Positions 635-32,100 of a DNA stretch of 64,000 nucleotides are shown one piece after another (positions within the stretch are counted from its first letter, which is position 1; each line of letters begins with the position of its first letter). Location: positions 146,005 through 210,004 of the forward strand of contig CAUJCU010000015.1 in NCBI GenBank assembly GCA_963169745.1, in the 5' to 3' direction. Under the pieces are notes generated by a model. It was not told where the DNA came from. It ran no database searches and worked only from the letters and a program-made list of their open reading frames with translations. The position numbers were made by a program, and so were the translations under genes. The stretch comes from Bacteroidota bacterium (GTDB lineage Bacteria > Bacteroidota > Bacteroidia > UBA4408).

Positions 635-3600
635 ATGAAAAGAAAAACGCTGTGCTTAATATTTTCTACCGTGTTAGCTGTGTTTATTGTTAACTTTACT
701 CAAGCCCAGACTGATTTTGGTTCTGAAAAAGAACTTCGAAAACAAGCCGAAAACTATTTTAAAGATGATAAACACTCAGAAGCCTTACCTCTTTTTTCAC
801 AGTTATTGAGCTTATATCCCAAAGACCCCAATTATAATTATAAGTATGGGGTTTGCCTCTTATTTGCTAAAGCCGATAAAGAGAAGCCCTTGGCATACTT
901 AACTTTCGCTTTGGGGAAAGAAGGGGTTGATGATGATATTTATTATTATTTGGGAAAGGCGTACCACTTAAATTATCGATTTGATGATGCCATAGTACAA
1001 TATCAGCTATTCAAGCAAAAGAAAAGCAGAAGTTCAACTAAATTAGAAGTTGATTTGCAGATAAAACAGTGTGAAAATGGAAAGCTGTTACTTAAAAATA
1101 TTACTGATTTAACAGTAATTGACCGTAAAGAAATGAATAGTTCTGAATATTTCAGAGCTTATGATCTTACACAAATTGGGGCAAAACTAGTTGTAAAACC
1201 AGATGAACTTAAGACACCTTTTGACATCAAGAAAAAAGAACAATCTAATGTAGTTATTCGTCAAACCAGTCAGGAAATTTACTTTAGTAGTTATGGAAAT
1301 GACGGCAAGAATGGTCGTGATATATACAAGGTAACCAAGCTACCAAATTTCACATGGGGAAAGCCTGAAAATATTGGAGCAATAGTTAATACCCCGTATG
1401 ACGAGGATTTTCCTTATATCACACCAGATGGAAAGACCTTGTATTTTTGTAGCAAAGGGCATAATAGTATGGGGGGCTACGATGTGTTTCGTTCAGAATT
1501 ACAGCCATCAGGAGCATGGGGGAAGCCCCAAAATCTTGATTTTGCCATTAATACCCCCGATGATGACATTCAGTTTGTAACTGAGGCAGAGAGTGATTTT
1601 GCCTATTTCTCATCTAAAAGAAATAGTCCGGAAGGGAAAATTACCGTTTTCAAAATCAGAACGGTACGCGTTCCGGTAACGATTGCTGCCATAAGTGGTA
1701 AGTTTTATAATGATGACGATCCGAAAAGCAAAAAAGCAAAAATTTCAATTCGTAACATTCAAACAGGAAAATTTTTGGGAGTTTTTGCCAGTTCTGAAAA
1801 AGATGGTGCCTATAGGTTAAATTTAAACAATGGTACAAAGTACGAATATACGGTTGAGCAACCAGGATTACCGCCTCTTACACAAACAGTAGAAATACCG
1901 CCTTTAAAAGAGTTAAGACCTCTAAAACAAGAAATTCATTTGAAAAAGAATGATGGTTCTGCAAGTATGGTAATCTATAACTTTTTTAGCGATACTTTAG
2001 AAAATAACGCACTAGCTACGGCTGAATTGTTTAAAGAGAAAGCCAACTTGGAAGTAAATTATGAAGAGCAAATTCAAGCCGGAATAATTACAGAGGCTAT
2101 GACCAAGTCGCCTCCTGTGGTTGATAACAAAGTACTATCAAATAGAAATGCATATCAGGAAAGTACAGACTCAAGCAATGAGGTAAAAGATACAAGCAAC
2201 TCACTTGCTAATAACCATATAACTAATCAAGTAACTACCGATAAGAAAACCTCTATAACCAAGGAGCCCAACTCTGAAAACAAAAATAACAAGACATCAA
2301 AAACAGGAATAAATAACAATGAATTGTTAGCTATTGCCTTTGAAGATACTAAAGACACTCAAAAAGAAGCAGACGATTTAAGAGATAAAAGCAGACAAGC
2401 ATATTCCTTTGCTCATATAAAAAACAATGCGGCACTAAAAAAGCAAAAAGAAGCTGAAGATAAAGAAGAGTTAGCCGAAAACCGGACTAACCCAAAGGAA
2501 AGACAACAACAACTTGAGGAGGCCGATAATTTGAAAAAGGAGGCCGAACCTCTTCGCCAGCAAGCTGTTGTTGCTTACAATTTAGCAAAAAGTTTAGAGA
2601 GTGAAGCCGATAGTAAGCAAATAGAAGCCCGCCAGGCCGAACAGTATGCGCAAGACTTAGAAAAAGCCATTCAATCTAACTCAGCTGAGGCTATATTAAA
2701 CCTGGAGAAACAAAATAAGGAGCTTGAAAAAAATGACACAACTAAGAAAAATAGCGAATATGATAACTTAATGGCTTTGGCTGATCAAAAAAATAATGAA
2801 ACGCAACAAAAAGAACAGGAAAAAGAAAAAGTAAAATTGCAAATTGAAGAGTCGCTTCTTGAAGAAAAGAAAACAAGAGAGTTAGTCTTAAAAACAAATG
2901 ATGAAAAGGCGAAAGAACAGTACGATAGTCGTATTAGTGCTATTTTAGTAGAAAGAAAAGATAAAGAGACCACTTTGACTGCTATCGAAAATGAAATAAC
3001 CCGATTAAAAAGAGAAACCGAAAATATTACCGAAGAAGCACAAATTAATAAGCAAATATTAGCCGAAATTTCGAGTGGTAACAGTACAACATACACTCAA
3101 CTTGGGCAAGCAGAATTAAAAGCATTAGACAACCACTTGGGGGCAGAACAACAGCATAAACAAACCGGATCCCAGGTAACCCAAGTGTCACAAAAAAACA
3201 CGCCTAATAATTCAACTCCTAAAGAACCAATCACGGCTCCTTCGCTATCTAAATTAGAACAACCTGAAAACTACGAGATATATAAAAACTCTAAAGATGA
3301 AAACCAAAGAGAAAAACTTCTTGCCGAAGCGTTAATGTTCAACAACCGAGCTGACTCCATTTCCGATTTGCTGAAAACAACTTCAGAGGTGTCTGAAAAT
3401 GAGGCATTAACTATAAAGCAAAAACAATTTGAAAATATTGCAGCAAGCAAACAAGTAGCAGCCGGAATAATTTCTTACAATATATTACAGAAAGAATACG
3501 ATGCTAATAGAGATGCTTTATTGCGTAAACAAAAAGAATTACAAGAGTCAGATTTGGCCAACTTTAACAATAGCTTAAGCCAAATTGAAAATGATTATCA

Positions 3601-6600
3601 AAAAGCTGTTGATAGTAAAGAGGCAGCTCTTGCTATAACAAATACTAAAGAGCAACAAGAAGCCTTGAATGTTACTTTAAACACTCAAAATGTCGCTTTA
3701 GTGCGTCAAAGGCAATTACTGGAGCAAGCCAATAGCAGCATTATCCTAAATAAAGGTGAAACCAAAATAGCTCAAGACTTTAAAGGTTTTGAGAAAGATA
3801 GAAATATTAATGCAACTGAGGCGGTAAATAGCCTTAGACCCGATTATTTGAATTATAACTCAACGGTAAAGTTAAGCCCAGAAGAGGCTAACGAACTAAG
3901 AAAGAGTAAAGAATTTATAGAGTTTAGTACACTGATTAAACAAGCTAAAACGTATGAGGAAAATGCAGACAAAAAAGCTATTTCCTATAACACCATAAAA
4001 GAAGAAGGACAAAATAAAATTATTGAGTCTCAACAATTAATAGACTTGGCAGCAGAGGAGAAGAAGAAGGCCAAAAAACAAGCTATGGTAGAGGAAGCAG
4101 TAAGAATAGATAATGAAGGGCAAAATCAACTTGCAATGGCCGATACGGTTAAAATTCAGGCACAAAAAGAAATGCTGAAAGCTGTTGCAGTTAAGGAAGA
4201 AGCTGACAAATACATTGCTGCAATTGAAAAGGAGAGAGCAAATAAAATACTAGCATTATTTAATAATCAAATTGAAGAAAAGCAAGTAACAGAAACAAGA
4301 ACATCTTCTGTTGAAAGCAAGGAAAAAGAACCTCTTACTGTAGATATTACGAAAACATCACAACAAACAAGTTCTACAAATACAAATTCTACGCAACAAA
4401 CTATAGTAACTGCTCCAAAATCTCAGGAAACAACTCCTCCGGAAACAGCAAATCAACTTAAGAATAACAATAATAATAGTACACCTTCTGATATCCAGTC
4501 GGTTCAAATAAAAACTAAAGACCAAATATTGACTGAAATTAAGTCAGATAATGACTATAAAGCATATGCCCAAATAAAAGATGAATCTGAGACCCTTAAA
4601 AAGGCTTCACAGCGTAAAAAATTAGAGGCAGATTCTGCTAGAATACAGGCCGAAAGGGAAGCTATTAACAGCAACGACTTATTTGAATTTGCTGCTGCAC
4701 AACCAAAGAAAAAAGATAGAAAAGAGGCACAGTTAAAAGCAGAGCAATTAGACAAACAAGCTAAAGAAACGGCCTTTAGAGCAGACTCGCTTCAAAATGC
4801 AGCTACTGTTATGGAAAATCAGGCTCAGAGCAAGCAAAACGAAGCAGATGATTTTCTAAGAAAGTTTGATGAAATGAAGTCAAAGAAACTGCTTATGGCA
4901 TATAACAATACAGTCCCCGAAGAATTACTTAAAACGGAGACACCAATCATAGCTACAAAAGACATCAATCAAAATAAAGAAACTTTAATATCTCCAGATT
5001 TTCAAAAAAGCACCCAACAAAAGCAAGATACACTGTCAGTACCTACTAAACCGAAGCAGCCAAGTGTGAAAACTACTCCCGAGTACAACACTTATTTAAG
5101 CTTAAAACAAGAAACTGAAAAGGCCGATGAAACTGCTAAAAAATGGAAACAAACTGTAGATTCATTAAAAACACTAAGTGACGAAAAAGAAGATGCTTCA
5201 AATGCAAAATTAGAAGAAGTAGCAGGTCTTAATAAGAAAAAAAGAAAGCCTCTGGTAAAAGAAGCGGCTGATTTGGATTATCAATCTCAGGTTTTAAACA
5301 GACAAGCAGATTCTTTAAATACATTTGTTAACGAAGCAAACAAAATTGCCAAAGAGAAAAAAGCAGCAGAATCATCCTATATAAATGGCTTGGATAAGCA
5401 GTTGTCATTAAGAATAATGCGAGCTATAGAAGGTATTCCAGAACCTGAGGAGCGTATAGACACCAGCCGTATTCTGGCTCATACCCCACAAAATATTAGC
5501 ACATCATCTAAAGAGTCTTTTGTGGCACCAACAAAAACAAGTACTTCTAATGTATCTTTTACAACAAGAGGCATAACAGGGGCTCAGCCACATACTGCAC
5601 GAAACCCTATAAAAATGAATCCCCAAATGCCTGATGGTCTTGTATTTAAAGTTCAAATAGGTGCTTTCAATCGTCCGGTAGCTGATAACGCTTTTGGTAC
5701 CATAAGTCCGGTAACGGGCGAAACCATAGCCGGAAGTAACTTAATACGTTATACGGCTGGGTTATTTAATAATTTTAATGACGCTGCTGAAGCCCGTAAA
5801 GAGCTGAACCAATTAAATTATAAAGATGCCTTTGTTGTAGCCTACTGTTATGGAGTCAGAATCAGCGTTTCCGAAGCCCGAACCCTTGGAGCTGCTGGAA
5901 AAGATTGTAAAACCAATACACTACTAACACCAGATCAAAAAAGTGAATTGGCAGCACAGTTTAATACTTCTACATCTTCAAATTTGAATTCTGATCTATC
6001 TAAGGAGAGTCTAATTAGAGCATCACAGGCTAACATAAACCCTCCTTCGCAAATAAAAATAGGAGAACTATTACCTCAACAAGATTTAGAAACTATAAAA
6101 GGGTTACTTTATACCGTTCAAGTGGGCGTTTATAGCAAACCCGTAAAAGCCGGACAGCTATATAATATTACACCATTGTATTTTGAATTAAATCAAAAAG
6201 GACAATACCGATACACCAGTGGAATTTTTAATGAATTAAAAGAAGCTTTAAAAGCCAAAGATGTTATTGTGCAAATAGGTGTATCTGATGCCTTTGTTTC
6301 GGCTTATGTAAACGGAAAACGAATACCTATGGAAGAGGCAGCGGCTATGGAACTCCAGAAGGGGAAAACAGTTTTTGCTCAAGTTCCGGGTGTCAATGTG
6401 CAACCAAAAATAATTCCTATGGACAATACTGCTATTACATCGGAAATTACCATGCAAACGTCTCAAACAAAAGAGACCGAGATACTTAATAAAGCAGCAA
6501 ATATTGTTTATAAGGTGCAGTTGGGAGCTTTTAGAAAAGAAGTTTCTGTTGAGATTATGAACAAATTTTTAAGTATTGCCGATAAAGGAATAGCCAACTA

Positions 6601-6772
6601 TAAGAATGGAGATTTAACGATTTATACACTCGGTAATTTTAGTAGCATTACAGATGCTGAAAAATTAAGGGCTGAGGTTATTGCCTTAGGAATTACTGAC
6701 GCCTTTATTGTTGCCTTTAACAAAGGACAAAAAATAACAATTGAGGAAGCTAAGAGTATGGGTGGAAACTAA
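635..6772 (+). CDS. giant secreted envelope protein: signal peptide, TPR-like region, TolB/PD40-like beta-propeller, CarboxypepD_reg-like domain, ~1100-aa K/E/Q-rich coiled-coil spacer, 3 C-terminal SPOR domains
   Basis: Single 2045-aa ORF with an N-terminal signal peptide (MKRKTLCLIFSTVLAVFIVNFTQAQ). There are TPR-like YYYLGKAYHLNYRFDDAIVQYQLF motifs. PD40/TolB blades follow (IYFSSYGNDGKNGRDIYKV; PDGKTLYFCSKGHNSMGGYDVFRS; INTPDDDIQF). Then comes a very long low-complexity helical region. Three SPOR-type repeats follow (FKVQIGAFNRP..., YTVQVGVYSKP..., YKVQLGAFRKE...). The N-terminal ~430 aa are clearly paralogous to CDS 20454..22529. Confidence 0.85.
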   Translation: MKRKTLCLIFSTVLAVFIVNFTQAQTDFGSEKELRKQAENYFKDDKHSEALPLFSQLLSLYPKDPNYNYKYGVCLLFAKADKEKPLAYLTFALGKEGVDDDIYYYLGKAYHLNYRFDDAIVQYQLFKQKKSRSSTKLEVDLQIKQCENGKLLLKNITDLTVIDRKEMNSSEYFRAYDLTQIGAKLVVKPDELKTPFDIKKKEQSNVVIRQTSQEIYFSSYGNDGKNGRDIYKVTKLPNFTWGKPENIGAIVNTPYDEDFPYITPDGKTLYFCSKGHNSMGGYDVFRSELQPSGAWGKPQNLDFAINTPDDDIQFVTEAESDFAYFSSKRNSPEGKITVFKIRTVRVPVTIAAISGKFYNDDDPKSKKAKISIRNIQTGKFLGVFASSEKDGAYRLNLNNGTKYEYTVEQPGLPPLTQTVEIPPLKELRPLKQEIHLKKNDGSASMVIYNFFSDTLENNALATAELFKEKANLEVNYEEQIQAGIITEAMTKSPPVVDNKVLSNRNAYQESTDSSNEVKDTSNSLANNHITNQVTTDKKTSITKEPNSENKNNKTSKTGINNNELLAIAFEDTKDTQKEADDLRDKSRQAYSFAHIKNNAALKKQKEAEDKEELAENRTNPKERQQQLEEADNLKKEAEPLRQQAVVAYNLAKSLESEADSKQIEARQAEQYAQDLEKAIQSNSAEAILNLEKQNKELEKNDTTKKNSEYDNLMALADQKNNETQQKEQEKEKVKLQIEESLLEEKKTRELVLKTNDEKAKEQYDSRISAILVERKDKETTLTAIENEITRLKRETENITEEAQINKQILAEISSGNSTTYTQLGQAELKALDNHLGAEQQHKQTGSQVTQVSQKNTPNNSTPKEPITAPSLSKLEQPENYEIYKNSKDENQREKLLAEALMFNNRADSISDLLKTTSEVSENEALTIKQKQFENIAASKQVAAGIISYNILQKEYDANRDALLRKQKELQESDLANFNNSLSQIENDYQKAVDSKEAALAITNTKEQQEALNVTLNTQNVALVRQRQLLEQANSSIILNKGETKIAQDFKGFEKDRNINATEAVNSLRPDYLNYNSTVKLSPEEANELRKSKEFIEFSTLIKQAKTYEENADKKAISYNTIKEEGQNKIIESQQLIDLAAEEKKKAKKQAMVEEAVRIDNEGQNQLAMADTVKIQAQKEMLKAVAVKEEADKYIAAIEKERANKILALFNNQIEEKQVTETRTSSVESKEKEPLTVDITKTSQQTSSTNTNSTQQTIVTAPKSQETTPPETANQLKNNNNNSTPSDIQSVQIKTKDQILTEIKSDNDYKAYAQIKDESETLKKASQRKKLEADSARIQAEREAINSNDLFEFAAAQPKKKDRKEAQLKAEQLDKQAKETAFRADSLQNAATVMENQAQSKQNEADDFLRKFDEMKSKKLLMAYNNTVPEELLKTETPIIATKDINQNKETLISPDFQKSTQQKQDTLSVPTKPKQPSVKTTPEYNTYLSLKQETEKADETAKKWKQTVDSLKTLSDEKEDASNAKLEEVAGLNKKKRKPLVKEAADLDYQSQVLNRQADSLNTFVNEANKIAKEKKAAESSYINGLDKQLSLRIMRAIEGIPEPEERIDTSRILAHTPQNISTSSKESFVAPTKTSTSNVSFTTRGITGAQPHTARNPIKMNPQMPDGLVFKVQIGAFNRPVADNAFGTISPVTGETIAGSNLIRYTAGLFNNFNDAAEARKELNQLNYKDAFVVAYCYGVRISVSEARTLGAAGKDCKTNTLLTPDQKSELAAQFNTSTSSNLNSDLSKESLIRASQANINPPSQIKIGELLPQQDLETIKGLLYTVQVGVYSKPVKAGQLYNITPLYFELNQKGQYRYTSGIFNELKEALKAKDVIVQIGVSDAFVSAYVNGKRIPMEEAAAMELQKGKTVFAQVPGVNVQPKIIPMDNTAITSEITMQTSQTKETEILNKAANIVYKVQLGAFRKEVSVEIMNKFLSIADKGIANYKNGDLTIYTLGNFSSITDAEKLRAEVIALGITDAFIVAFNKGQKITIEEAKSMGGN
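5641..6760 (+). repeat. three tandem SPOR (sporulation-related repeat, septal peptidoglycan-binding) domain units inside the 635..6772 CDS
   Basis: Protein-level triplication of a ~80-aa unit beginning VQIGAF / VQVGVY / VQLGAF with the downstream YR/YT, GxF and DAF motifs typical of SPOR domains. DNA starts near 5641, 6110 and 6508. Confidence 0.6.
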
Positions 6773-7693: not shown

Positions 7694-9703
7694 TTGAAGA
7701 AAAATCGGATAATATTTGCTTTATTATTAGTCACTATTGGTGTTATATTTTTTAGTGTTGAATGCCAATCTCCTAAAAAACAAAATGGCAGCGAAAATTT
7801 GGAAACACCTCATTATCTAAATCATGCTGATTCTGCCCGTTATGTAGGTATCAACGCTTGTAAAACATGCCATTATGAAATTTACACATCGTTTATTGAA
7901 ACCGGCATGGGGCAGTCGTTTGATATTGCTAGTAAAAAGAAGAGTGCTGCTTTATTTGGACCAAGTAATGTAATTTACGATTCTTATTCAGATTTTTATT
8001 ACCATCCTTATTTTTCTGGAGATACTATGAAAATATTGGAATTCCGTATCAATGGTAAAGATACTGTTTACAAGCGTACCGAAACGGTAAACTATATTAT
8101 TGGTTCGGGGCAACATACCAATTCACACATGATGATTCGAGATGGTTTTGTTACCCAAATGCCAATGACCTTTTATACCCAAAAAAAACAATGGGATTTA
8201 CCCCCCGGTTTTGAAAATGGATACAATTCACGGTTTAGCCGGAAAATTGGCTTAGAATGCATGAGCTGCCATAATTCATACCCTGATTTTGTTTTAGGAT
8301 CTGAAAACAAGTTTAATGCTATACCTCATGGAATAGGGTGTGAACGATGCCATGGACCAGGCTCTATTCATGTTGATTTAAAAACAAAAAACCAAATAGT
8401 AGATACCGCTAAAAACATTGATTACAGCATTGTGAATCCGGCTAAATTAGCACCTAATTTACAATTTGATATATGCCAAAGATGCCATCTCCAGGGAAAC
8501 ACTATTTTAAAAGATAATTATTCTTTTTACGATTTTAAACCGGGAAAAAAACTATCTGATTTTATGACTGTTTTTTTGCCTAAATTCAGCCATGCTGATG
8601 ATGAATTTATTATGGCTTCACATGCTGATAGACTCAAGCAAAGCCAATGCTTTATACAAAGTCAGAAATATGTTGACTCCTCTTCCTTAAAACCATATAA
8701 AAATACGATGACATGCGTAACTTGTCATAACCCACATAAAAGTGTAAAGTTTCAGAAAGATGAATTTTTTAATGCAAAATGCAACTCATGTCATGCCGAA
8801 AAACAAGTAGCCACTTGTTCCGAAACTAAATCGAAAATTGATTTGCAAAAGAATAATTGTGTAAGTTGCCACATGCCCAACTCCGGATCTATTGATATTC
8901 CCCATGTTACTGTTCATGATCATTATATTAGAAAACCCAAGCCTGCTACTGAACTTAAAAAGGCTAAAGAGTTCCTAGGATTGATTGCCATTAACGAGTT
9001 AAACCCTAACCATAAAACCAAAGCCCAAGCCTATATTAACCAATACGAAAAATTCGATAAAGTAGCCTATTATCTTGATTCGGCAGAAGTTTATACAAAT
9101 ATTTTACGAAAACAATCATTGACACTCTTCTTGGATGTAATTGTCCATTTGAATTTTCTAAAAGGAAACTACTCACAAATTATTGCTGATGTTGAGAAGA
9201 TTGGTCAGGTAAAACTTATTAACGACATCCTTGTCCATCCTTCTTATAACAATAAGGATGCCTGGTTGTGTTATAGAATTGGAGAAGCCTATCAAACCCA
9301 AATGGAATACACTAAAGCCATGGTTTATTATGCTCAGGCTAACAAGCTTGCACCATACTATCCAGATTTTTTAAACAAGTATGCCGGTGCCTGTCTTAAC
9401 AACAACCAATTGCCACAAGCTCAATCATTATATATAAAACTGACACAAAATTTTCCTGAATTTGCACCGGGTTTTTCAAATTTAGGTTTTATCTATTTAA
9501 CCCAAAATGATAAAGTCAATGCACATAAATACATTACCAAGGCTTTACAATTGGATCCCGATTATGAGTTGGCTCTGATGAACAAAGTAAGTCTTTTATT
9601 GTACGAAAATAACATCAAAGAAGCTCAAAAAATATTAAAGAAAATTATTAAACGAAACCCCAAACAAGAAAAAGCAAAAGAGCTTTTACTGCAGCTTCAT
9701 TAA
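7694..9703 (+). CDS. multihaem c-type cytochrome (7 CXXCH motifs) fused to C-terminal TPR repeats; N-terminal signal/anchor
   Basis: Seven haem-binding motifs read directly from the translation: CKTCH, CMSCH, CERCH, CQRCH, CVTCH, CNSCH, CVSCH. An N-terminal hydrophobic segment is present (IIFALLLVTIGVIFF). The C-terminal ~200 aa are TPR-like (AYQTQMEYTKAMVYYAQANKL..., LGFIYLTQNDKVNAHKYITKALQLDP...). Confidence 0.8.
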   Translation: MKKNRIIFALLLVTIGVIFFSVECQSPKKQNGSENLETPHYLNHADSARYVGINACKTCHYEIYTSFIETGMGQSFDIASKKKSAALFGPSNVIYDSYSDFYYHPYFSGDTMKILEFRINGKDTVYKRTETVNYIIGSGQHTNSHMMIRDGFVTQMPMTFYTQKKQWDLPPGFENGYNSRFSRKIGLECMSCHNSYPDFVLGSENKFNAIPHGIGCERCHGPGSIHVDLKTKNQIVDTAKNIDYSIVNPAKLAPNLQFDICQRCHLQGNTILKDNYSFYDFKPGKKLSDFMTVFLPKFSHADDEFIMASHADRLKQSQCFIQSQKYVDSSSLKPYKNTMTCVTCHNPHKSVKFQKDEFFNAKCNSCHAEKQVATCSETKSKIDLQKNNCVSCHMPNSGSIDIPHVTVHDHYIRKPKPATELKKAKEFLGLIAINELNPNHKTKAQAYINQYEKFDKVAYYLDSAEVYTNILRKQSLTLFLDVIVHLNFLKGNYSQIIADVEKIGQVKLINDILVHPSYNNKDAWLCYRIGEAYQTQMEYTKAMVYYAQANKLAPYYPDFLNKYAGACLNNNQLPQAQSLYIKLTQNFPEFAPGFSNLGFIYLTQNDKVNAHKYITKALQLDPDYELALMNKVSLLLYENNIKEAQKILKKIIKRNPKQEKAKELLLQLH

Positions 9704-9713
9704 AAATTAATTT

Positions 9714-10802
9714 ATGACTCGTAAAAGAAAATCAAGTAAAGAAACTTCGAAAAAGAAAAGCTCAGGTTTTTTCAGAAAAGTACTCATATCTTTATTCTTT
9801 ATTCTTATAATAATTGGAGGCGGAACCGTATATTTTACATACACTGCAGTTTATAAGCCCAATATTAAATTACAGGGAAAAGAAAATACATTTTTATACA
9901 TTAATACAGGGAGTACTTTTAATGAAGTTTTAAAAACCTTGGTTGACAGTCAAATTATAAATAATCAAAGTTCATTTAAATGGGTGGCCGAGCATAAGGG
10001 ATATATAAATAAAGTAAAGCCCGGAAGATATAAAATAAAGAAAGGAATGAGCAACAACGAACTCGTTAATCTGTTACGCAGTGGAGTTCAAGAGCCGGTT
10101 AAACTTATTTTTAATGAAGCTCGAACTAAAAATGATTTTACCGAAATTATTTCAAAACAAATTGAGGCAGAAAAAATAAGTATTGAAAAATTACTTGAAG
10201 ATAATGACTTTTTAAATCAATATCAGGTAAACAACAAAAATGTTTTGACTTTATTTATCCCCAATACCTATGATTTTTTTTGGAACACCAATGCCCAACA
10301 ATTTATAGAGCGAATGGCAGAAGAAAACAATAAATTTTGGACTAAAGAAAGATTAAAGAAAGCTGCCCGATTAAATTTATCAAAAACAGAGGTAAGTATA
10401 TTGGCAAGTATTGTACAGCAAGAGAGCAAGGTGGTTGATGAACAACCTGTAGTTGCCGGAGTTTATCTGAATAGACTTAAAAAAAAGATGTTGCTACAAG
10501 CTGATCCAACTGTGATTTTTGCAGTTGGTGATTTTTCAATCAGAAGAGTACTGAATACACATTTGAATTATGATTCTCCATACAATACCTATAAATATTT
10601 GGGCTTACCACCCGGCCCAATATGTATGCCTTACTCAAACACTATTGATGCGGTATTGAACAGTAAACCCCACAACTATCTTTATTTTTGTGCAAAAGCA
10701 GATTTTAGTGGACGACACAGTTTTGCCAGCACATTGGCACAACACAATAGAAATGCCGAAGCATTTAGAAAGGCCTTAAACAATAAAAAAATTTTTAAAT
10801 AA
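9714..10802 (+). CDS. mltG: endolytic murein transglycosylase MltG (YceG family)
   Basis: N-terminal basic tail plus a single TM anchor. YceG-like domain (…PGRYKIKKGMSNNELVNLL…, …LQADPTVIFA…, YNTYKYLGLPPGPICMP); 362 aa. Confidence 0.85.
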   Translation: MTRKRKSSKETSKKKSSGFFRKVLISLFFILIIIGGGTVYFTYTAVYKPNIKLQGKENTFLYINTGSTFNEVLKTLVDSQIINNQSSFKWVAEHKGYINKVKPGRYKIKKGMSNNELVNLLRSGVQEPVKLIFNEARTKNDFTEIISKQIEAEKISIEKLLEDNDFLNQYQVNNKNVLTLFIPNTYDFFWNTNAQQFIERMAEENNKFWTKERLKKAARLNLSKTEVSILASIVQQESKVVDEQPVVAGVYLNRLKKKMLLQADPTVIFAVGDFSIRRVLNTHLNYDSPYNTYKYLGLPPGPICMPYSNTIDAVLNSKPHNYLYFCAKADFSGRHSFASTLAQHNRNAEAFRKALNNKKIFK

Positions 10803-11207: not shown

Positions 11208-13859
11208 ATGAACATTATTGATATAAAGGCCATGCGTGGCCCCAATTACTGGAGTATCAGACGACATAAGCTAATTGTTATGAAAATTGATTTGGAAGAA
11301 ATGGAAGAATTTCCTTCCAATAAAATCGATGGCTTTGCCGACCGGTTAGAAAAAATGTTCCCAAGTATGTATGAACACGAATGCAGTGAAAATAAGCCGG
11401 GAGGCTTTTTTTCTCGTGTACGGGAGGGCACCTGGATGGGGCATGTGATTGAACATATAGCTCTTGAAATTCAAACCTTAGCAGGAATGGATACCGGCTT
11501 TGGCCGAACCCGAACAACAGGCGAACATGGGGTGTATAATGTCGTTTTTAGCTATCAGGAAGAAAAAGTAGGAATATATGCTGCAAAGGCTGCTGTGCGT
11601 ATTTGTGAGGCCCTTGCAAAAGACACACCTTATGATTTAGGAGAGGATATTCAAAAAATGCGAGAAATACGTGAAGATGAAAGACTGGGGCCAAGTACAG
11701 GTTCAATTGTAGAGGAAGCTCAGGCACGTGGTATTCCATGGATACGTTTAAACCGTTATAGCCTGGTGCAGTTGGGATATGGCGTTAACCAAAAAAGAAT
11801 ACAAGCTACTGTAACGAGCAACACCAGTAATATTGCAGTTGAAATTGCTTGCGACAAAGAAGAAACTAAAAATTTGCTTGAAGCAGCTTCAATCCCAGTC
11901 CCACGTGGCACCATAATCTATGATGAAGAGGACATGGAACGTGCCGTAAGAAGAATAGGTTACCCTTTAGTGTTTAAACCGGTTAATGGAAATCATGGAA
12001 GAGGTGCTACCATAAATATTCAAAATTGGGATGCGGCTGTTGAAGCTTTGACTCTAGCAAAAAAAGTAAGCCGAGGCGTGATTTGTGAAAAGTTTATCAC
12101 CGGTTTTGACTTTCGTCTTTTAGTAATTAATTATCAGTTAATAGCTGCTGCCAAAAGAACTCCAGCTTGTGTAACAGGAAATGGCAAATCAACTATAAAG
12201 CAGCTTGTTGAGGAGGTAAATAATGACCCCCGCAGAGGTTATGGACACGAAAAAGTACTTACGGCTATTAAGCTAGATGAAATGACATTAAATATTTTGA
12301 AGGATAAAAATCTCAGTATTGATGATGTATTGCCTGATGGTGAAGTGCTTTACTTAAAAAAAACAGCAAACTTAAGTACTGGAGGAACCAGCACAGATGT
12401 TACTGATTTGGTGCACCCTGATAACGTTTTTATGGCCGAAAGAATTGCTCGCATTATTGGTCTTGATATTTGTGGTATTGATATTATGGCCTCCGATTTG
12501 AGTACTCCAATTAGTCAAAATGGTGGAGCTGTTCTGGAAGTGAATGCCGCCCCGGGTTTTAGAATGCATATTGCTCCTGCCGAGGGCTTGCCACGAAATG
12601 TAGCCGAACCAGTCATTGATATGCTATATCCGCCCGGCAGCTCAGCTCGTATTCCAATAATTGCCGTAACAGGAACCAATGGAAAAACAACTACAACCCG
12701 ACTTATGGCTCACATTGTGAAAACAATGGGGCATAAGGTTGGATTTACCACAACAGATGGTATTTATGTGCAAAATCGTATGTTGGAACAAGGAGATTGT
12801 ACGGGGCCGGTTAGTGCCGAGTTTATTTTAAAAGATCCAACGGTTGATTATGCCGTATTGGAATGTGCCCGTGGAGGAATTTTAAGAGCCGGCTTAGGCT
12901 TTCATAAATGCGACATAGCTATTGTAACAAACGTAGCAGCCGACCACTTAGGATTAAAAGATATTAATACTTTAGAAGACATGGCTCGTGTAAAGGGCGT
13001 TGTGCCTGAAAGTGTTATGCCCGAAGGTTATGCCATATTAAATGCAGACGATGATTTGGTGTATAATATGCGTAAAGGCTTAGAGTGTAATGTGGCCTTA
13101 TTCAGCTTAAACGAAAATAATCCACGTATAGTTGAACACTGTAATAAAGGCGGATTAGCAGCTATTGTTGAAAACGGCTATGTTACAATATGCAAAGGCA
13201 CCTGGCGCATTCGTGTGGATAAAGTTGTAAATATTCCACTCACGTTTAGCGGTAAAGCAATCTTTATGATTCAGAATGTTTTACCTGCCATACTTGCCGG
13301 GTTTATTAGAAATTTTAAGACAGAAGATATCAGATTGGCTTTGGGCACTTTTATTCCTTCGCCAACGCAAACTCCAGGACGTATGAACTTATTTCACTTT
13401 AAAAACTTTCAAGTTATGGTGGATTACGCCCATAATACAGCCGGATTCCAGGCCATTGGTAAGTTTTTAGAAAAAATTGAGGCGAAACCTAAAATTGGGA
13501 TTATTGCCGGTGTAGGCGATAGAAGAGATGAAGATATTTACAATTTGGGGAAACAAGCAGCCCAGATGTTTGATAAAATAATCATCAGACAAGATAAAAA
13601 TTTAAGAGGCCGAACAGAGCAGGAGATTATAGATTTAATGAAGAAAGGAATTAATGAAGTAGATGCATTACGATTAGAAAAAATAATTCCAACAGAAAAA
13701 GAAGCCATTGAGTATGCTATTAAAAATGCCCAAAAGGGTTCTTTTATTACAATTTGCAGCGATGTTGTACCTGACGCCTTAGATCAAATTATGAAATACA
13801 AAGAACGAGAAGATAAGTTTGAAATAACTGTTGAAGATATTCAGGACTTACATAAATAA
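11208..13859 (+). CDS. cphA: cyanophycin synthetase CphA1 (N domain + ATP-grasp + Mur-ligase-like domain)
   Basis: N-terminus MNIIDIKAMRGPNYWSIRRHKLIVMKIDLEE matches the conserved CphA N-domain start. An ATP-grasp region (GYPLVFKPVNGNHGRGATINI) follows. A Mur-ligase P-loop (IIAVTGTNGKTTTTRLMAHI) follows and the C-terminal region is Mur-ligase-like. The 883-aa length is typical of CphA1, not the shorter CphA2. Confidence 0.9.
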   Translation: MNIIDIKAMRGPNYWSIRRHKLIVMKIDLEEMEEFPSNKIDGFADRLEKMFPSMYEHECSENKPGGFFSRVREGTWMGHVIEHIALEIQTLAGMDTGFGRTRTTGEHGVYNVVFSYQEEKVGIYAAKAAVRICEALAKDTPYDLGEDIQKMREIREDERLGPSTGSIVEEAQARGIPWIRLNRYSLVQLGYGVNQKRIQATVTSNTSNIAVEIACDKEETKNLLEAASIPVPRGTIIYDEEDMERAVRRIGYPLVFKPVNGNHGRGATINIQNWDAAVEALTLAKKVSRGVICEKFITGFDFRLLVINYQLIAAAKRTPACVTGNGKSTIKQLVEEVNNDPRRGYGHEKVLTAIKLDEMTLNILKDKNLSIDDVLPDGEVLYLKKTANLSTGGTSTDVTDLVHPDNVFMAERIARIIGLDICGIDIMASDLSTPISQNGGAVLEVNAAPGFRMHIAPAEGLPRNVAEPVIDMLYPPGSSARIPIIAVTGTNGKTTTTRLMAHIVKTMGHKVGFTTTDGIYVQNRMLEQGDCTGPVSAEFILKDPTVDYAVLECARGGILRAGLGFHKCDIAIVTNVAADHLGLKDINTLEDMARVKGVVPESVMPEGYAILNADDDLVYNMRKGLECNVALFSLNENNPRIVEHCNKGGLAAIVENGYVTICKGTWRIRVDKVVNIPLTFSGKAIFMIQNVLPAILAGFIRNFKTEDIRLALGTFIPSPTQTPGRMNLFHFKNFQVMVDYAHNTAGFQAIGKFLEKIEAKPKIGIIAGVGDRRDEDIYNLGKQAAQMFDKIIIRQDKNLRGRTEQEIIDLMKKGINEVDALRLEKIIPTEKEAIEYAIKNAQKGSFITICSDVVPDALDQIMKYKEREDKFEITVEDIQDLHK

Positions 13860-20453: not shown

Positions 20454-22529
20454 CTAACGACTTAAAATTTTAAATTCGGTTCTCCGGTTTAACTGGCGCC
20501 CTTCATCGGTGTCATTTCCTGCAATAGGTTGTGTTAAGCCATAGCCCTTGTATTCTAATCGATCTTTTGATATTCCATTGCTTACCAAATATTCTACTAC
20601 TGATTTGGCTCTGCTTTCCGATAAGGTTTGATTATATTGGGCTGCTCCTTTGTTGTCGGTATGCCCACTAATTTCTATTTTTAGTGTAGGTACATCGTTA
20701 AGCAATTTGGTTAAACGCTCTAGTTCATTGTTTGACTCAGGCCTTAAAGTGGCTTTATCAAAATCAAAGAAAATATTACGCAATACAATTTTTTGACCCA
20801 CTTGTACATTTTTAAGTAGAACGTCTTTAACCACTTCCTGATAACCACTTGACGAAGGAATATCAAAGTTTTCGGAATGAAATAAATAACCCTCAGCTTT
20901 AACGGCAATCCCATAATTCTTTCCAGATGGCAGGGTAACCAAGTATTTACCTGTTTTATTATTTGATTTAAAGGTAGCTAGTTCCACGTTTTGAGTATTG
21001 TCCACCAATACAATTTCTGCACTAAGTGGTTTGTTTGAAATGGCATCTGTAATAACACCCTTTAAAAGAGTTACCGAATTCGATTCAATTTTTGCCGGAG
21101 GTGCAATAAAAACTTCACTTACAGGGGCTTCAATATTGGCAAAAAGATTGTCCTCATTACTTAACTGAACAGGTTTTTCGGGACCTAAAAAGGTTATCAT
21201 ATAGATGTCCTTATCACCTATGCCTTCATTCTTTATTGAGGCGTAATAACCATGCTTACCGCTTGCCGAAATAACAAAGAAAACATCATCATCCGGGGTA
21301 TTTATCGGATATCCTAAATTTACAGGTTCACTCCATACTCCATTTTTAAGTTCACACTTAAAAATATCAAATCCTCCCATACTGCTGTGTCCTTCTGAGC
21401 TGAAGTATAGAGTCTTACCATCGGGAACAATAAATACTCCCTCTTCATTATATTTTGTATTTATAGTAGTTCCAATGTTTACAGCCTCGCTCCATTTGTC
21501 TTTTTGATTTTTATCTACATACCAAATATCACGGCCACCTAAACTGCCATCCTTGCGGTCGCTTACAAAAAATAAGGTCTTTCCATCGTATGAGATAGAG
21601 GCCGATGATTCATGATCACTACTGTTTATTGATTTGGCCATTTTTTCGGGTTCAGTCCATTTGTCTCCTTTCAATATGCTCTCATAAATATTTCCATATC
21701 CCTTATCATCACGGTACGTATAGAGTGTTTGCCCATCGGGCGATAGGTTCACGGTTGCATCATGCCCAGGCGTATTAATAGGAGGGCCAATATTGGTAGG
21801 TACACCCCATTCTTCATTAAATTTATAGGTAACAAAAATATCCTCAAAGTATTCATCATAGTTTTCATCTATTTTACCACCGGTTGTTGTGTTTCTACGT
21901 GAGGTAAACATTAAAATATCTTCATCAGCAGAAATTACCGGTCCATAATCAGGATAAGTTGAGTTTACTTTATTCCCTAAATTATCAATAAAAACCCTTA
22001 CCGGAGTTTTTACCAGTATTTTCCCATGATTACATTCGGCTATTTTTTTGTTTACATCCTCAATTAAAAAAACTTGATCCTTTTTCTTTGGGTCTAATCC
22101 ATTACGAAACAATTGATACTCTTCAATAGCCTTATCCCACTCCATATTTAAATGATGGCCGCGTCCCAAATAATAGTGTATTTCAGCATCTACTTGAGGG
22201 TTTAGACTGTAGGCACGTTCAAAAAACTCTTTAGCTTTATATTTAAAGTTACCATTGATGTAACATACTCCAATTCTGAAATTTAGTTCCGAATTATTAG
22301 GGTTAAATGCTTGAGCCCTTAAATAGGGTTCTAACGCAAACTTATATTTTCCCGGGCGCTTGCCTAAAAACTCTTCATTCCCCATATCTAAAGCACTTTT
22401 GGCATCTCGAAGTTGATCTTTTTGTCCCGGAAAATTACTTTTTTCAAAAGGAATATCTTTTGCATTTTGAGCATTTGTTTGTATAGCGTAGTAGCTTACT
22501 AGTAACAGTATGAGGATAATTTTTTTCAT
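20454..22529 (-). CDS. TPR / TolB-like beta-propeller / CarboxypepD_reg-like / OmpA_C peptidoglycan-binding domain envelope protein (TolB-Pal-like fusion)
   Basis: Signal peptide. TPR-like N-terminus. PD40 blades (PDGKTLYFSSEGHSSMGGFDIFKCEL, INTPDDDVFFV). C-terminal OmpA_C (NIFFDFDKATLRPES…ISGHTDNKGAAQYNQTLSESRA…NRRTEF). Paralog of the N-terminal third of CDS 635..6772. Confidence 0.85.
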   Translation of the reverse strand: MKKIILILLLVSYYAIQTNAQNAKDIPFEKSNFPGQKDQLRDAKSALDMGNEEFLGKRPGKYKFALEPYLRAQAFNPNNSELNFRIGVCYINGNFKYKAKEFFERAYSLNPQVDAEIHYYLGRGHHLNMEWDKAIEEYQLFRNGLDPKKKDQVFLIEDVNKKIAECNHGKILVKTPVRVFIDNLGNKVNSTYPDYGPVISADEDILMFTSRRNTTTGGKIDENYDEYFEDIFVTYKFNEEWGVPTNIGPPINTPGHDATVNLSPDGQTLYTYRDDKGYGNIYESILKGDKWTEPEKMAKSINSSDHESSASISYDGKTLFFVSDRKDGSLGGRDIWYVDKNQKDKWSEAVNIGTTINTKYNEEGVFIVPDGKTLYFSSEGHSSMGGFDIFKCELKNGVWSEPVNLGYPINTPDDDVFFVISASGKHGYYASIKNEGIGDKDIYMITFLGPEKPVQLSNEDNLFANIEAPVSEVFIAPPAKIESNSVTLLKGVITDAISNKPLSAEIVLVDNTQNVELATFKSNNKTGKYLVTLPSGKNYGIAVKAEGYLFHSENFDIPSSSGYQEVVKDVLLKNVQVGQKIVLRNIFFDFDKATLRPESNNELERLTKLLNDVPTLKIEISGHTDNKGAAQYNQTLSESRAKSVVEYLVSNGISKDRLEYKGYGLTQPIAGNDTDEGRQLNRRTEFKILSR

Positions 22530-22552
22530 TGGTAACTTGTTTTTGTCCTTGA

Positions 22553-23632
22553 TTACTTACAGTCTTCAGTATATTTGCCGGCTAATTCGATACCCAGATT
22601 TTTAGCTTTTTCCCAATCTGTACAAGCCCCTTTAGGGTCGCGAAGCATTTCTTTTGCAATACCTCTGTTTAAATAAGCTACGGCATAATCGCTGTTTAAT
22701 TGTATAGCTTTTGTTGCATCATCTACCGAACCGTTGTAATCTTTTATCTTAAATTTAGCAGCCGATCGGTTGTTATATGCATAAGTGTAATCTCCTTTTA
22801 TTTTAATGGCATTTGAAAAGTCGTCAATAGCTCCTTTGTAATCACCTAAATCAAACCGGGCGCTGCCCCTGTTATTCAAAGCAATGTAACTGTCAGGTTT
22901 GGAGGCAATGGCTTTACTGTAACTTTCAATGGCACCTTTTAAATCGCCACTTTTTCGTTGGGCTGAGCCTAAGTTGTTATAAGTAAAAGTCATATCAGGG
23001 TTAAACTGTAATGCTTTTAAATAGTCACTAATAGCACCGTTATAATCTTCCATTTGCCTTTTGGTGCTACCTCGGTCATTGTAGGCATAAGCAAAATCGG
23101 GTTTTAAAACAATGGCTTGTGAAAAATCATCTATTGCCTCTTTGTATTTCTTTAAATTAAGGTAAACACTGCCTCTATGGTAATAAGCTTGGCTCTTGTT
23201 TTCGTTTCGCTCAATAGATTTTGTATAATAGGATATTGCTTTTTCATTTTCTTTTAATAATTCAAAAGTTTGTGCCATGTTGTACATAACATCCTGCAAG
23301 GAGTCGGTTAAAGATAGGCACTTCTCAAAATCTTGAATAGCTGCTCCATATTGTTTATTCTCTTTTTTAGCTACCCCCCGGTTAAAGTATGATTTTCCCC
23401 AATCGGGTTTTATGGCCAATGATTGAGTAAAAAAATCAATAGCCGCTTTATAATCACCAATTTTCATTTTTTCAATGCCCTCGTTATAGGCTTTTTCGGC
23501 CTCTTGAGAAGGAATTAAATTAATGATACTGTCTTTACTTTCAGATTGTGGAGTAGGGGAGTCGTTATTTTGTGCTTGCAATACTCCATATAAACAAGCA
23601 AGAAAAGCACAACAGCTTAGAATTTTTTTCAT
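22553..23632 (-). CDS. TPR-repeat lipoprotein/secreted protein
   Basis: At least 8 TPR-like repeats (AYYHRG…, AYNDRG…, TYNNLG…, ALNNRG…, AYNNRS…, AYLNRG…). Likely start at the internal MKKILSCCAFLAC signal/lipobox rather than the upstream MTIK. Directly upstream and co-directional with 20454..22529. Confidence 0.75.
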   Translation of the reverse strand: MKKILSCCAFLACLYGVLQAQNNDSPTPQSESKDSIINLIPSQEAEKAYNEGIEKMKIGDYKAAIDFFTQSLAIKPDWGKSYFNRGVAKKENKQYGAAIQDFEKCLSLTDSLQDVMYNMAQTFELLKENEKAISYYTKSIERNENKSQAYYHRGSVYLNLKKYKEAIDDFSQAIVLKPDFAYAYNDRGSTKRQMEDYNGAISDYLKALQFNPDMTFTYNNLGSAQRKSGDLKGAIESYSKAIASKPDSYIALNNRGSARFDLGDYKGAIDDFSNAIKIKGDYTYAYNNRSAAKFKIKDYNGSVDDATKAIQLNSDYAVAYLNRGIAKEMLRDPKGACTDWEKAKNLGIELAGKYTEDCK

Positions 23633-23865
23633 AAAAATGATAATTACTTTAATTGTCAAATTTAATTTCTTCTGTTAAATAATGAAAAAAAAATTAATAA
23701 TTGTTCATATTGTAGCAAGCTGCTTTATAAAGTGGGTAAAAAAGCTTTAAAATCCTACCCAACTTTAAAGCCCACTACTGTGTGAAGTATAAACTATAAT
23801 TACAGGTACACTTTTTGATTCTTTTAAAGTTAAATAGGATATTTGATAAGTATAAATCAATTTAA

Positions 23866-29136: not shown

Positions 29137-32100
29137 GTGAAAAACTTAGAACAAAAATCAAAAGATGAATTAATTGAATACATCAAATTGCTGCAAAGCA
29201 AGATTGATAATGTAAATCTATACTTCCCCGGCTTTGGTGTAATCAATAAGTATGAGAAAATCAATACACAAACTATTGATAAGTATCGACTTATGTTTCA
29301 AAAATCTAATGATGCCATTCTGGTTCTTAAAAAAAATATAGTTACCGAATGCAATTTTAAAAGCGAAAGTGTTTTTGGAATACACAAAGAGCATATTATT
29401 GGAAAATTTCTTTATGACTTTACACCCATGATTCAGCCTGATGGGTCAAATAGTAAAGAGAAAATTCACCAGTTTTTAAAAGAGAGTAACTCCAAGCACC
29501 AACAAATTCCATTACAAATTAAGATGTTGAAAAATGGGCTCAATTTGTTTGATGCAGAACTAAATTTTTCTGAATTTACAATTGATGAAGATACCTTTGT
29601 TTATCTCGTAATTAGAGATGTTTCAGAACGGATGGAGTTAAGCCGCCAGCTTAAAGATGAGTATGAAAAACGAATTGAAGAGCAAGATTTAACCCAAAGT
29701 GGAAATTGGGAATTTAATGCCAATAATTTTGATGTTTATTGGTCACCATCAGCCTATGCCATACATGACCTTTCACGCCATATAAAAGCACCCACATTAA
29801 ATGAATATTTTGCTCAATATGTGCACCCCGATGAGCATGATATTTTGTTTCAGGCAATTCAGGAAAGTATTAGAACGGGCCATAATTTTAGTATGGACTA
29901 CAAAATTAGGACCAAAAATCAAAAAATGAAATACCTGCATGTTAAGGGCAAAGCGGTATATCAGTTAAATGGTGAGGTTGATAAAGTTGTTGGTACAGTT
30001 GTAGATATTACAGAAAGAAAATTATTGGAAATTAAACTAAATGATAGTAAAGAGCAATATCAGAATTTGATTGAAAAATTGCCTGAAGGGGTAATTATCT
30101 ACAACCTCCAAAAAATACTGTATGCCAATATTAGTGCTTTTCAAATACCTAAGGTTAACTCTCTAAAAGAAGATTGTTCAGCATATTCAATTTTTGATTT
30201 TATTTTACCTCAATATAAAAATGAAGTTGAAAGAAAAATAAAGTTCCTAATTGAAGGCAAATCATTGGGAACTGTAGAAATGAGAATAAAAAATGCAGAG
30301 GGCAAAATTATAGATATTGAGGTTAGAAGTAACCCTGTGGTTCATAATGGAGAAGTGGCCATACAGGCTATTTTTTCAGAAATAACCTATAGAAAATATG
30401 TGGAACGGAAACTTCGTGAAAGTGAGCGCAGATTGAGTACCTTAATTGGTAATTTACAAGGAATGGTGTATAGGTGCAAAAATGATCCCTCTTGGACTAT
30501 GGAGTTTGTTAGCGATGGCTGTTTAGAGCTTACAGGTTATGATAGAGAAGCCATGTTAAATAATACATCTATACATTATAGCGAATTAATTCTTGATGAA
30601 GATAGGGAATCTGTTTGGCAAAAAGTACAAGAGGCGGTTTCAGAACGAAGAGTATTTACTCTTTCTTATCGTATTAGAACAAAAAATGGAACCATAAAAT
30701 GGCTCCACGAACAGGGTAAAGGTATTTTTGATGATCAAAATAAACTTTTGGCATTGGAGGGCTTTATTACCGATGTGTCAAGAGAAAAATATGCCGAAAT
30801 TGCCTTAAAGGAAAGATATAACGATTATAAGAATATTGTTGACTTTGTACCTGAAGGAATGCTTATACATAAGCACGGAACTATTGTTTTCGCAAATCAG
30901 GTAGCGCTCGGTATTTTTGGCTATAATACCAATGATGAGTTAAAAGGCCTTTCCATGATGAATTTTATTCTTCCGGAATTCCATGAAAAAGTTAAAAAGC
31001 GTGTTGAAGGCTCTTATAAAGGAATGCCTCAAACCTTTACTGAAATTAAGGTTTATACTCGAAATGGGGGGGTATTGGAAGTAGAAACTCGAAGTATTCC
31101 ATTTGTGTATGAAAACGAACAATGTGTTTTAGTTGCAGTTCACGCTATTGATGCTCAGAAACAGCTTGCAAAAGAAACTATAAGAGCAAAATTAGCTGAG
31201 GAAGCAAATGAAGCTTTAAAAAAGGAAATAGAGCAAAAAGTGATTGCTCAAAATGAATTAATTACTTCTCAGAACTATGTAAAGAATATCATTAATAGTT
31301 CGTTGGATATGATTATTGCCTCTGATAGGAACAATAAAGTAACGGAATTCAATAAAGCTGCGCAGATTGTTTATGGCTATAAAGAAAGTGAAATTATTGG
31401 ACAAGAGTTAAGTGTTTTAACATCTGCTCCTGAGGTGCTTTTGAAGGTTCAAGATGTACTGCATAAAGAAGGATACTTCTCAGGAGAGGTACTCAATATC
31501 AGAAAAAATGGGGAATTGTTCGATTGCTTCTTAACGGCTACTTTACTGCTCAACGAAAAAGGAGAGGTAATAGGAAGCATGGGGGTTTCGCGAGATTTAA
31601 CGAAACTAAAAAAAGATCGCGAACGCTTCCATCTAAGTGAAGAAAGATATAAAGCTATTTTCAACCAAGTTTTTGTTGGAATAGCTCGTTTAGACATATC
31701 CGGAAAGTTTACCCAGGTTAACCAAAGATTTTGTACTATATTAGGATATACAGAAGAAGAATTGTTAGAGCTTTATTTTCAAGATAAAAGCGTTGAGCAT
31801 ACTGTTAATGGCTTTGAGAATTTATTGGATTATTTAATTAGGAAAAAAATCAATGACTATACATTCGAGCAAAATTATTATCATAAAGATGGTCATATTG
31901 TAAATACCCAAATAAACATTTCATTAGTATTAAGTGCCAATAACAGCCCTATGTACTTTGTATTGGTTTGTGCTGATATTACTGAAAATAAGCGAAACCA
32001 TGAATTAGCCTTAAAACAAACGGCCAAGCTAAATTCATTAATTGAGAGCAGCAATTATATGGTAATGGCAATTGATAAAAAAGAAAGGCTAACAACATTT

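Follow-up and report, generated by a model that had tools for sequence, protein, structure and literature searches.

We analysed a 64,000-nucleotide stretch of DNA (hereafter the window, to which all positions refer) from a Bacteroidota bacterium of the lineage UBA4408 (assembly GCA_963169745.1, contig CAUJCU010000015.1, positions 146,005 to 210,004 of the forward strand). Close to its start lies an uninterrupted ATG-to-stop open reading frame (ORF) of 2045 codons (635..6772, forward strand), flanked upstream by plsY (PF02660), which is cut by the window start, and downstream by prmC (PrmC_N/MTS). Both flanks are recognised by their domains, in line with the placement given in a first-pass annotation made from the sequence alone. 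The encoded protein consists of an export signal, a head composed of TPR, PD40 blades and a beta-sandwich, a very long spacer, and a tail of three SPOR domains (Table 1). The first-pass annotation did not recognise it as a characterised protein and, consistent with that view, no source provides a functional name and a literature search found no paper describing this head-spacer-triple-SPOR architecture.

An intact gene

The middle of the protein is strongly biased in composition, which could point to a spurious ORF, an artefact of low complexity or a chimeric assembly. Several observations make an origin of this kind a practically negligible prospect. Over the same stretch, the five remaining frames contain 81-246 stops each, and the probability of encountering 2045 stop-free codons by chance, computed from base composition, is ~1e-69. 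A 100% identical product (P0001) is present on 11 contigs of independent public assemblies, so that the ORF survives resequencing, and hundreds of orthologues share its conserved ends. Tandem repeats at the DNA level are confined to one 41-bp array. The independent identical copies, the single array and the chance estimate together rule out an assembly chimera or repeat artefact: the ORF, as originally called, is a real, intact gene.

The public gene call of P0001 is 2033 residues long, its start being located 12 codons 3' of the ATG at 635. By skipping positions 635-670, that start drops the charged n-region of the signal peptide. The ATG at 635 yields a canonical signal peptide that matches the N-termini of homologues, and we favour it. 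A scan for sigma-70 promoters and terminators returned hits at or below the expectation from shuffled sequence, the sigma-70 model being one that does not apply to Bacteroidota promoters.

Table 1. Features of the 2045-residue protein and its paralog (residues in protein numbering; positions in the window). iE, independent E-value; HMM, hidden Markov model; AF2, AlphaFold2; SPI, signal peptidase I; CRD, CarboxypepD_reg-like domain.
Feature	Residues	Position	Strand	Basis
Whole ORF	2045 aa	635..6772	+	ATG-to-stop; identical product in independent assemblies
Signal peptide, SPI type, cleavage ...TQA/Q, no lipobox	1-24	635..706	+	N-terminal helix 2-25 in AF2 model; family N-termini
Three-TPR domain with capping helices	31-152	725..1090	+	
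Shortened propeller region of PD40 (TolB-type): three blades after two lead-in strands	161-345	1115..1669	+	PD40 match, NCBIfam, AF2 strands
CarboxypepD_reg-like beta-sandwich	350-451	1682..1987	+	Eight strands in model; hhalign 97.8% to paralog CRD
Linker 1, S/T/N-rich, variable length	482-573	2078..2353	+	Composition; lowest conservation and occupancy in family alignment
Hairpin repeat copy 1	574-678	2354..2668	+	Family HMM iE 8e-16; hhalign 94.8%
Hairpin repeat copy 2 (probable, divergent)	703-813	2741..3073	+	hhalign 53%, E 1.3e-4, near full repeat length; HMM match alone not significant
Helix-prone spacer segment	880-1085	3272..3889	+	Helix-propensity segments
Hairpin repeat copy 3	1086-1211	3890..4267	+	HMM iE 1e-33; hhalign 99.1%
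Hairpin repeat copy 4	1300-1425	4532..4909	+	AF2-modelled copy; hhalign 99.4%
Hairpin repeat copy 5	1476-1599	5060..5431	+	HMM iE 3e-34; hhalign 99.9%
SPOR domain 1, motif VQIGAF	1668-1745	5636..5869	+	Pfam SPOR 25.4 bits; Q1674 and F1678 invariant in family
SPOR domain 2, motif VQVGVY	1822-1899	6098..6331	+	Family SPOR HMM iE ~1e-28; Q1829 invariant
SPOR domain 3, motif VQLGAF	1955-2036	6497..6742	+	Pfam SPOR 25.7 bits; Q1962 >=90% conserved
Paralog: full-length head (TPR, four PD40 stretches, CRD) and OmpA_C		20454..22529	-	CHU_0125/PorE-like

A head related to PorE and CHU_0125

In the family alignment, N-termini are of the SPI type and end in A/Q, with Q25 at least 90% conserved, and no signal peptide across the family has a lipobox Cys. 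The conserved Q after the cleavage site fits the Q-rule of Bacteroidetes (PMC5837995). There is no match to Por_Secre_tail, the tail of type IX secretion system (T9SS) substrates, in either Pfam or NCBIfam. We rejected the possibilities that the protein is T9SS cargo or a surface lipoprotein, as it is without a C-terminal secretion domain and without a lipobox; the signal peptide, together with the absence of these two features, suggests that it resides in the periplasm.

The domain list of the first-pass annotation for this region (signal peptide, TPR, PD40, beta-sandwich) stands, but the kinship with TolB that it proposed does not, as models of PorE and CHU_0125 match best. One PD40 stretch passes the Pfam cut-off (36.5 bits), whereas TPR and CarboxypepD_reg (19.7 bits) fall below theirs. 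In NCBIfam, the CHU_0125_OmpA model (NF053607) matches residues 210-408 with 102.1 bits against a cut-off of 620, and the PorE model (NF052230) matches residues 209-403 with 99.3 bits against a cut-off of 600. There is no TolB model among the NCBIfam matches at E <= 0.1, nor any NCBIfam match to TolA or Pal. An AF2 model of the head based on 51 family sequences (predicted local distance difference test, pLDDT, 83.5; predicted template modelling score, pTM, 0.68) comprises the signal helix, TPR helices (31-152), two lead-in strands, blades (205-342) and an eight-stranded sandwich (350-451). TolB is the best propeller match of this model, the match being local and weak (E ~2e-3), and the label 'TolB-like' holds for the head only at the level of blade type. 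Identity with TolB itself, which has an N-terminal alpha/beta domain and a closed six-bladed propeller, we rejected given the missing TolB match and the single PD40 stretch in Pfam.

The paralog elsewhere in the window, which carries OmpA_C, scores 340 bits with the CHU_0125 model, 303 bits with PorE and 87 bits with OmpA. BLASTP aligns residues 22-160 of the head with residues 43-175 of the paralog and residues 186-453 with residues 285-589 (30% identity, E 6e-36), bearing out the earlier suggestion that the same head module occurs fused to OmpA_C. Compared with the paralog, the head is without ~110 residues, equivalent to about two blades, and its own blades align to the paralog's last three. 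OmpA_C itself has no match in the 2045-residue protein in either Pfam or NCBIfam. When the family was aligned to the paralog with hhalign, the alignment proceeded with 97.8% probability through the sandwich into the strand before OmpA_C and then lost confidence, which weakly suggests descent from an OmpA_C-bearing ancestor. We considered residues 442-470 as a relic of the first OmpA_C strand and helix; only the strand aligns confidently, and the idea is kept as no more than a weak lead. Given the homology to PorE and CHU_0125, the missing lipobox and the missing blades, the head is related to that of PorE/CHU_0125-type proteins but is shorter and not lipidated.

A spacer of hairpins and flexible linkers

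The spacer (residues ~455-1665, ~1200 residues in length) is rich in K (12%), E (11.8%), A (9.8%), N (8.6%), Q (8.2%) and also L, with few G, P or aromatic residues. Its original description as a K/E/Q/A-rich helical segment is right about the helical and low-complexity composition but wrong about uniformity, since modular hairpins and linkers are found instead. Specifically, an HMM iterated over the family detects a ~122-residue repeat at residues 573-681, 1089-1210, 1302-1424 and 1478-1597 (iE about 1e-16 to 1e-37), and multiple copies are present in 121 out of 121 family proteins tested. Four copies are backed by hhalign (94.8-99.9%), which adds one probable copy and finds no repeat match across residues ~860-1085. 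The best-conserved stretch of the spacer in the family conservation profile is residues 561-840, which includes copy 1. Copies are set apart by segments of 50-92 residues, rich in S/T/N/P/Q, where conservation across the family alignment is lowest and length varies most.

What might the repeat look like? A set of 28 diverse copies aligns nearly gap-free, with a common Tyr, a central loop containing P/G and an 'ADS' motif. AF2, provided with this alignment, returned a model (pLDDT 97.6, pTM 0.83) with helices at positions 7-56, 60-110 and 114-125. The repeat is therefore predicted to fold into an antiparallel hairpin, each arm running for ~50 residues (~7.5 nm), with a short third helix behind it. 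Judging by this model, the spacer is best pictured as rods on flexible strings and not as one long coiled coil. The single helix of ~180 nm envisaged in the first-pass annotation, which would have exceeded the width of the periplasm, is replaced in this model by ~7.5-nm antiparallel hairpins and flexible linkers.

The hairpin resembles nothing specific in the databases we searched. Foldseek with the hairpin model gave no match at E <= 1e-3, its best geometric likenesses being generic long hairpins (chemoreceptor shafts, the receptor-binding hairpins of colicins, and CT398). Pfam contains nothing meaningful for the four confident copies or for residues 683-1075, and a profile search of PDB sequences with the repeat recovered only designed helical proteins and Rop, which we judged to be compositional similarity and set aside. 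An exhaustive hmmsearch among 1.84 billion representative proteins yielded 102 matches at E <= 1e-3. Of 90 newly found repeat proteins, 48 have the full head-repeat-SPOR arrangement, 29 are pieces with head plus repeat or repeat plus SPOR, and 13 have the repeat alone. The hairpin repeat is essentially confined to the head-repeat-SPOR family.

Among the 13 proteins with the repeat alone are three metagenomic ones of 210-227 residues (P0134, P0148 and P0172), each with its own signal peptide, one hairpin copy and nothing recognised by Pfam; in these the domain may occur in free-standing form.

Three SPOR domains

When the SPOR units were scanned separately against Pfam SPOR (PF05036, cut-off 21 bits), the first and the third passed (Table 1). 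A family SPOR HMM reveals the three units to be clearly paralogous to one another, and a profile built from the three finds exactly three units in 121/121 family proteins tested. The earlier call of three SPOR domains is thus upheld, with two units above the Pfam cut-off and the remaining one paralogous to them. A phmmer search of PDB sequences with the SPOR region produced no match. In each of the three units, which line up with the start of the Pfam alignment, profile position 8 is a Gln and position 12 is aromatic. In the structure of RlpA-SPOR, Gln at position 8 (Q270) and Phe at position 12 (F274) are the best-conserved glycan contacts (PMC6895207). The SPOR domain of CHU2221 from Cytophaga hutchinsonii is found at division sites and has an affinity of ~0.8 uM for denuded glycans (bioRxiv 10.1101/2022.07.01.498525). 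By alignment, then, the residues used to contact denuded glycans are preserved in all three units.

Distribution of the family and conservation of spacer length

A full-length search identified 2045 proteins at E <= 1e-5. The 120 top-ranking ones are 1400-2437 residues long, all come from Bacteroidia/Bacteroidota metagenome bins, and are named only 'hypothetical protein' or 'PD40 domain-containing protein'. Relatives are encoded at 578 loci or more in species-representative genomes. Across 53 complete genes, the head spans 438-456 residues and the spacer 818-2088 (median 1312); 44 of the 53 have three SPOR units, the range being 2-4.

Starting from a member of the Fluviicola lineage, the search reaches cultured Crocinitomicaceae, namely Brumimicrobium salinarum (CW751_14620, 2115 residues), B. 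mesophilum and Fluviicola sp. This branch keeps the head, a spacer of 945-1378 residues rich in E/K/N/L/Q, and two recognisable SPOR units, while the C-terminal ~150-200 residues differ. No copy of the hairpin was found by HMM in 74 full-length proteins of the branch, so that a long spacer has been kept where its sequence has not: spacer length is conserved where spacer sequence diverges. In Crocinitomicaceae, an unrelated C-terminal region of ~150-200 residues takes the position of the third SPOR; in the B. salinarum protein (P0293) it covers residues ~1950-2115.

Such persistence of length, with a spacer that is long in every complete gene, might be expected if the protein were a rigid periplasmic ruler that sets the distance between outer membrane and wall or between inner and outer membrane, an option raised in the first-pass annotation. 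Two observations argue against this model. First, hairpins that fold back on themselves, separated by low-complexity linkers of 50-92 residues, would give the spacer no fixed length. Second, spacer length differs 2.5-fold among species. We therefore consider a ruler very unlikely.

Comparison with known systems

The closest parallel in domain order is PorE (PG1058) of the Porphyromonas gingivalis T9SS, in which TPR, PD40 blades and a CarboxypepD_reg-like sandwich likewise precede a peptidoglycan-binding module, the likeness at the sequence level lying in blades and sandwich. PorE is described as an outer-membrane lipoprotein that combines three TPRs with a five-bladed propeller, a CRD and OmpA_C (PMC5053529). 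It packs five blades into ~270 residues, compared to three in ~185 here, and OmpA_C follows directly after the sandwich, whereas the 2045-residue protein has its ~1200-residue spacer and three SPOR domains at this point, and an SPI signal in place of a lipoprotein signal. With a score of 99.3 bits versus 600, no lipobox, three blades and no OmpA_C, we rejected the identification as PorE.

Could the protein nonetheless be an accessory of T9SS or gliding, with the head binding an outer-membrane protein of the PorP/SprF type and the SPOR tail anchoring the complex to the wall at long range? The PorE propeller has been implicated in the interaction with PorP (PMC12773672), the PorE model reaches 99 bits over blades and sandwich, and T9SS cargo genes occur near the locus in family genomes. 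However, the score is far below the cut-off and slightly lower than that of the CHU_0125 model, no T9SS component genes are adjacent, and the protein is without the lipid anchor, two of the blades and OmpA_C. In PorE, OmpA_C binds peptidoglycan and is essential, while the CRD is dispensable (PMC12773672). On balance, we consider an accessory role of this kind improbable.

CHU_0125 of C. hutchinsonii, which has an envelope-tethering role, provides the best NCBIfam match of the head. It has OmpA_C, which the 2045-residue protein does not, and the type of domain present suggests that the latter would bind denuded glycans rather than stem peptides. Membership in the CHU_0125 family was rejected on the score (102.1 bits versus 620) and the lack of OmpA_C.

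At the other end of the protein, the C-terminal SPOR with conserved Gln and aromatic glycan contacts is shared with FtsN, DamX, DedD and RlpA of E. coli and Pseudomonas, and RlpA also links the outer membrane to denuded septal glycans. FtsN, DamX and DedD have a transmembrane helix and RlpA a lipid anchor, each with one SPOR and short disordered linkers; the protein under study, in contrast, carries three SPOR domains, is not anchored in a membrane, and places a giant modular spacer after a folded head. Since its signal peptide is cleavable, its folded head periplasmic and its SPOR count three, we rejected the FtsN/DamX/DedD type; the lack of a lipobox and of any match to DPBB, the lytic-transglycosylase domain that precedes SPOR in RlpA, led us to reject RlpA. 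Resemblance to the Tol-Pal system with CpoB/YbgF of Proteobacteria is limited to domain types, and an energised inner-membrane component is missing.

Other genes in the window

The paralog is directly followed by a gene for a 368-residue secreted protein that is nearly all TPR (seven TPR_1 stretches); the two genes, which span 20454-23659 (-), may be an operon pair. Directly after prmC, a 669-residue secreted protein (7694-9703, +) pairs MtrC/MtrF-like multihaem cytochrome domains (several CXXCH) with C-terminal TPRs, an unusual combination. A YceG/MltG-type peptidoglycan endolytic transglycosylase is encoded 3 kb downstream of the 2045-residue gene (9714-10802, +), an adjacency seen in 0 of 80 related loci. 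Two large genes look ordinary: a cyanophycin synthetase (11208-13859, +) and a 1426-residue multi-PAS histidine kinase of the HisKA_2/HWE type (29137-33417, +).

Discussion

All globular parts of the protein except the hairpin belong to known domain families, and it is best described as a variant of two known kinds, outer-membrane-to-peptidoglycan tethers and SPOR proteins, with a new, family-specific hairpin repeat. From this combination we infer binding of denuded glycans and a part in coordinating outer membrane and cell wall at division. Our preferred reading, put forward tentatively and at slightly less than even confidence, is that of a division-linked tether between the outer-membrane side and septal peptidoglycan processed by amidases. 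In this scenario, a soluble periplasmic protein of ~230 kDa would be exported by Sec and cut by signal peptidase I. Its head would dock on an outer-membrane or outer-membrane-associated protein, by analogy with PorE and PorP, and its three SPOR domains would bind, with avidity, denuded glycan strands, which are most abundant at the division septum. Between head and tail, five ~7.5-nm hairpin rods, one additional helical stretch and five flexible linkers would allow the two ends to sit tens of nanometres apart or to lie along the wall, so that the spacer would provide reach and not a set distance.

A number of considerations weigh against this scenario. We infer both septal targeting and outer-membrane contact from domain homology only. 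Three blades are too few to form a closed propeller on their own, and SPOR domains are also found in proteins that act outside division. A head without the lipid anchor and two of the five blades of PorE may have partners of another class; SPOR unit 2, at 17.4 bits, is under the Pfam cut-off; and the hairpin fold derives from one modelled copy (copy 4). Further, the gene neighbourhood is not conserved. Across 80 related loci, plsY is located upstream on the same strand in 24-27, and no division or T9SS component genes recur beside the gene; in other lineages, ClpS and an M48 metallopeptidase follow downstream on the same strand (L085, 14447-15601, and 24-26 further loci). With plsY, or ClpS and the peptidase, recurring in different lineages, synteny offers no functional clue.

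The absence of division genes from the neighbourhood is in keeping with a general tether or scaffold for envelope integrity, one not specific to division. In that case, the SPOR domains would bind glycans wherever amidases act, either for attachment of the CHU_0125/Pal-like kind or as part of a loose periplasmic mesh formed by self-association of hairpins. [quoted passage not shown] Yet the SPOR domains in the papers cited above bind denuded glycans and concentrate at septa, and the CHU_0125-like OmpA_C paralog in the same genome would make a second general tether redundant. We regard this alternative as possible but rather unlikely.

Returning to a division-linked tether, one can imagine a more far-reaching version in which the family is a one-polypeptide counterpart of Tol-Pal/CpoB across much of Bacteroidota. 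Two paired heads would combine into a TolB-like pseudo-propeller of six blades with a hold on an outer-membrane protein, paired hairpin chains would provide an extensible arm, and six SPOR domains would lock on to denuded septal glycans, drawing in the outer membrane in the wake of the closing septum without an energised inner-membrane motor. That two heads may pair in this fashion is an attractive idea, but the scheme as a whole is a long shot. If true, the hairpin would represent a novel rod-like domain of the periplasm, with the number of copies setting how far the arm extends.

To our knowledge, how Bacteroidota coordinate invagination of the outer membrane with synthesis of the septal wall is poorly understood, and the tethers between outer membrane and wall that we know of in this phylum are proteins of the OmpA_C/Pal type. 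The presence of the family in cultured Crocinitomicaceae (Brumimicrobium, Fluviicola) makes experiments feasible. In hundreds of species, the same docking head appears to have been re-tooled towards another feature of the wall, denuded glycans, via a very long spacer of conserved length. The family thereby supplies a concrete candidate for a septum-directed outer-membrane tether and adds a previously undescribed ~122-residue domain, predicted to be a helical hairpin, to the periplasmic repertoire.

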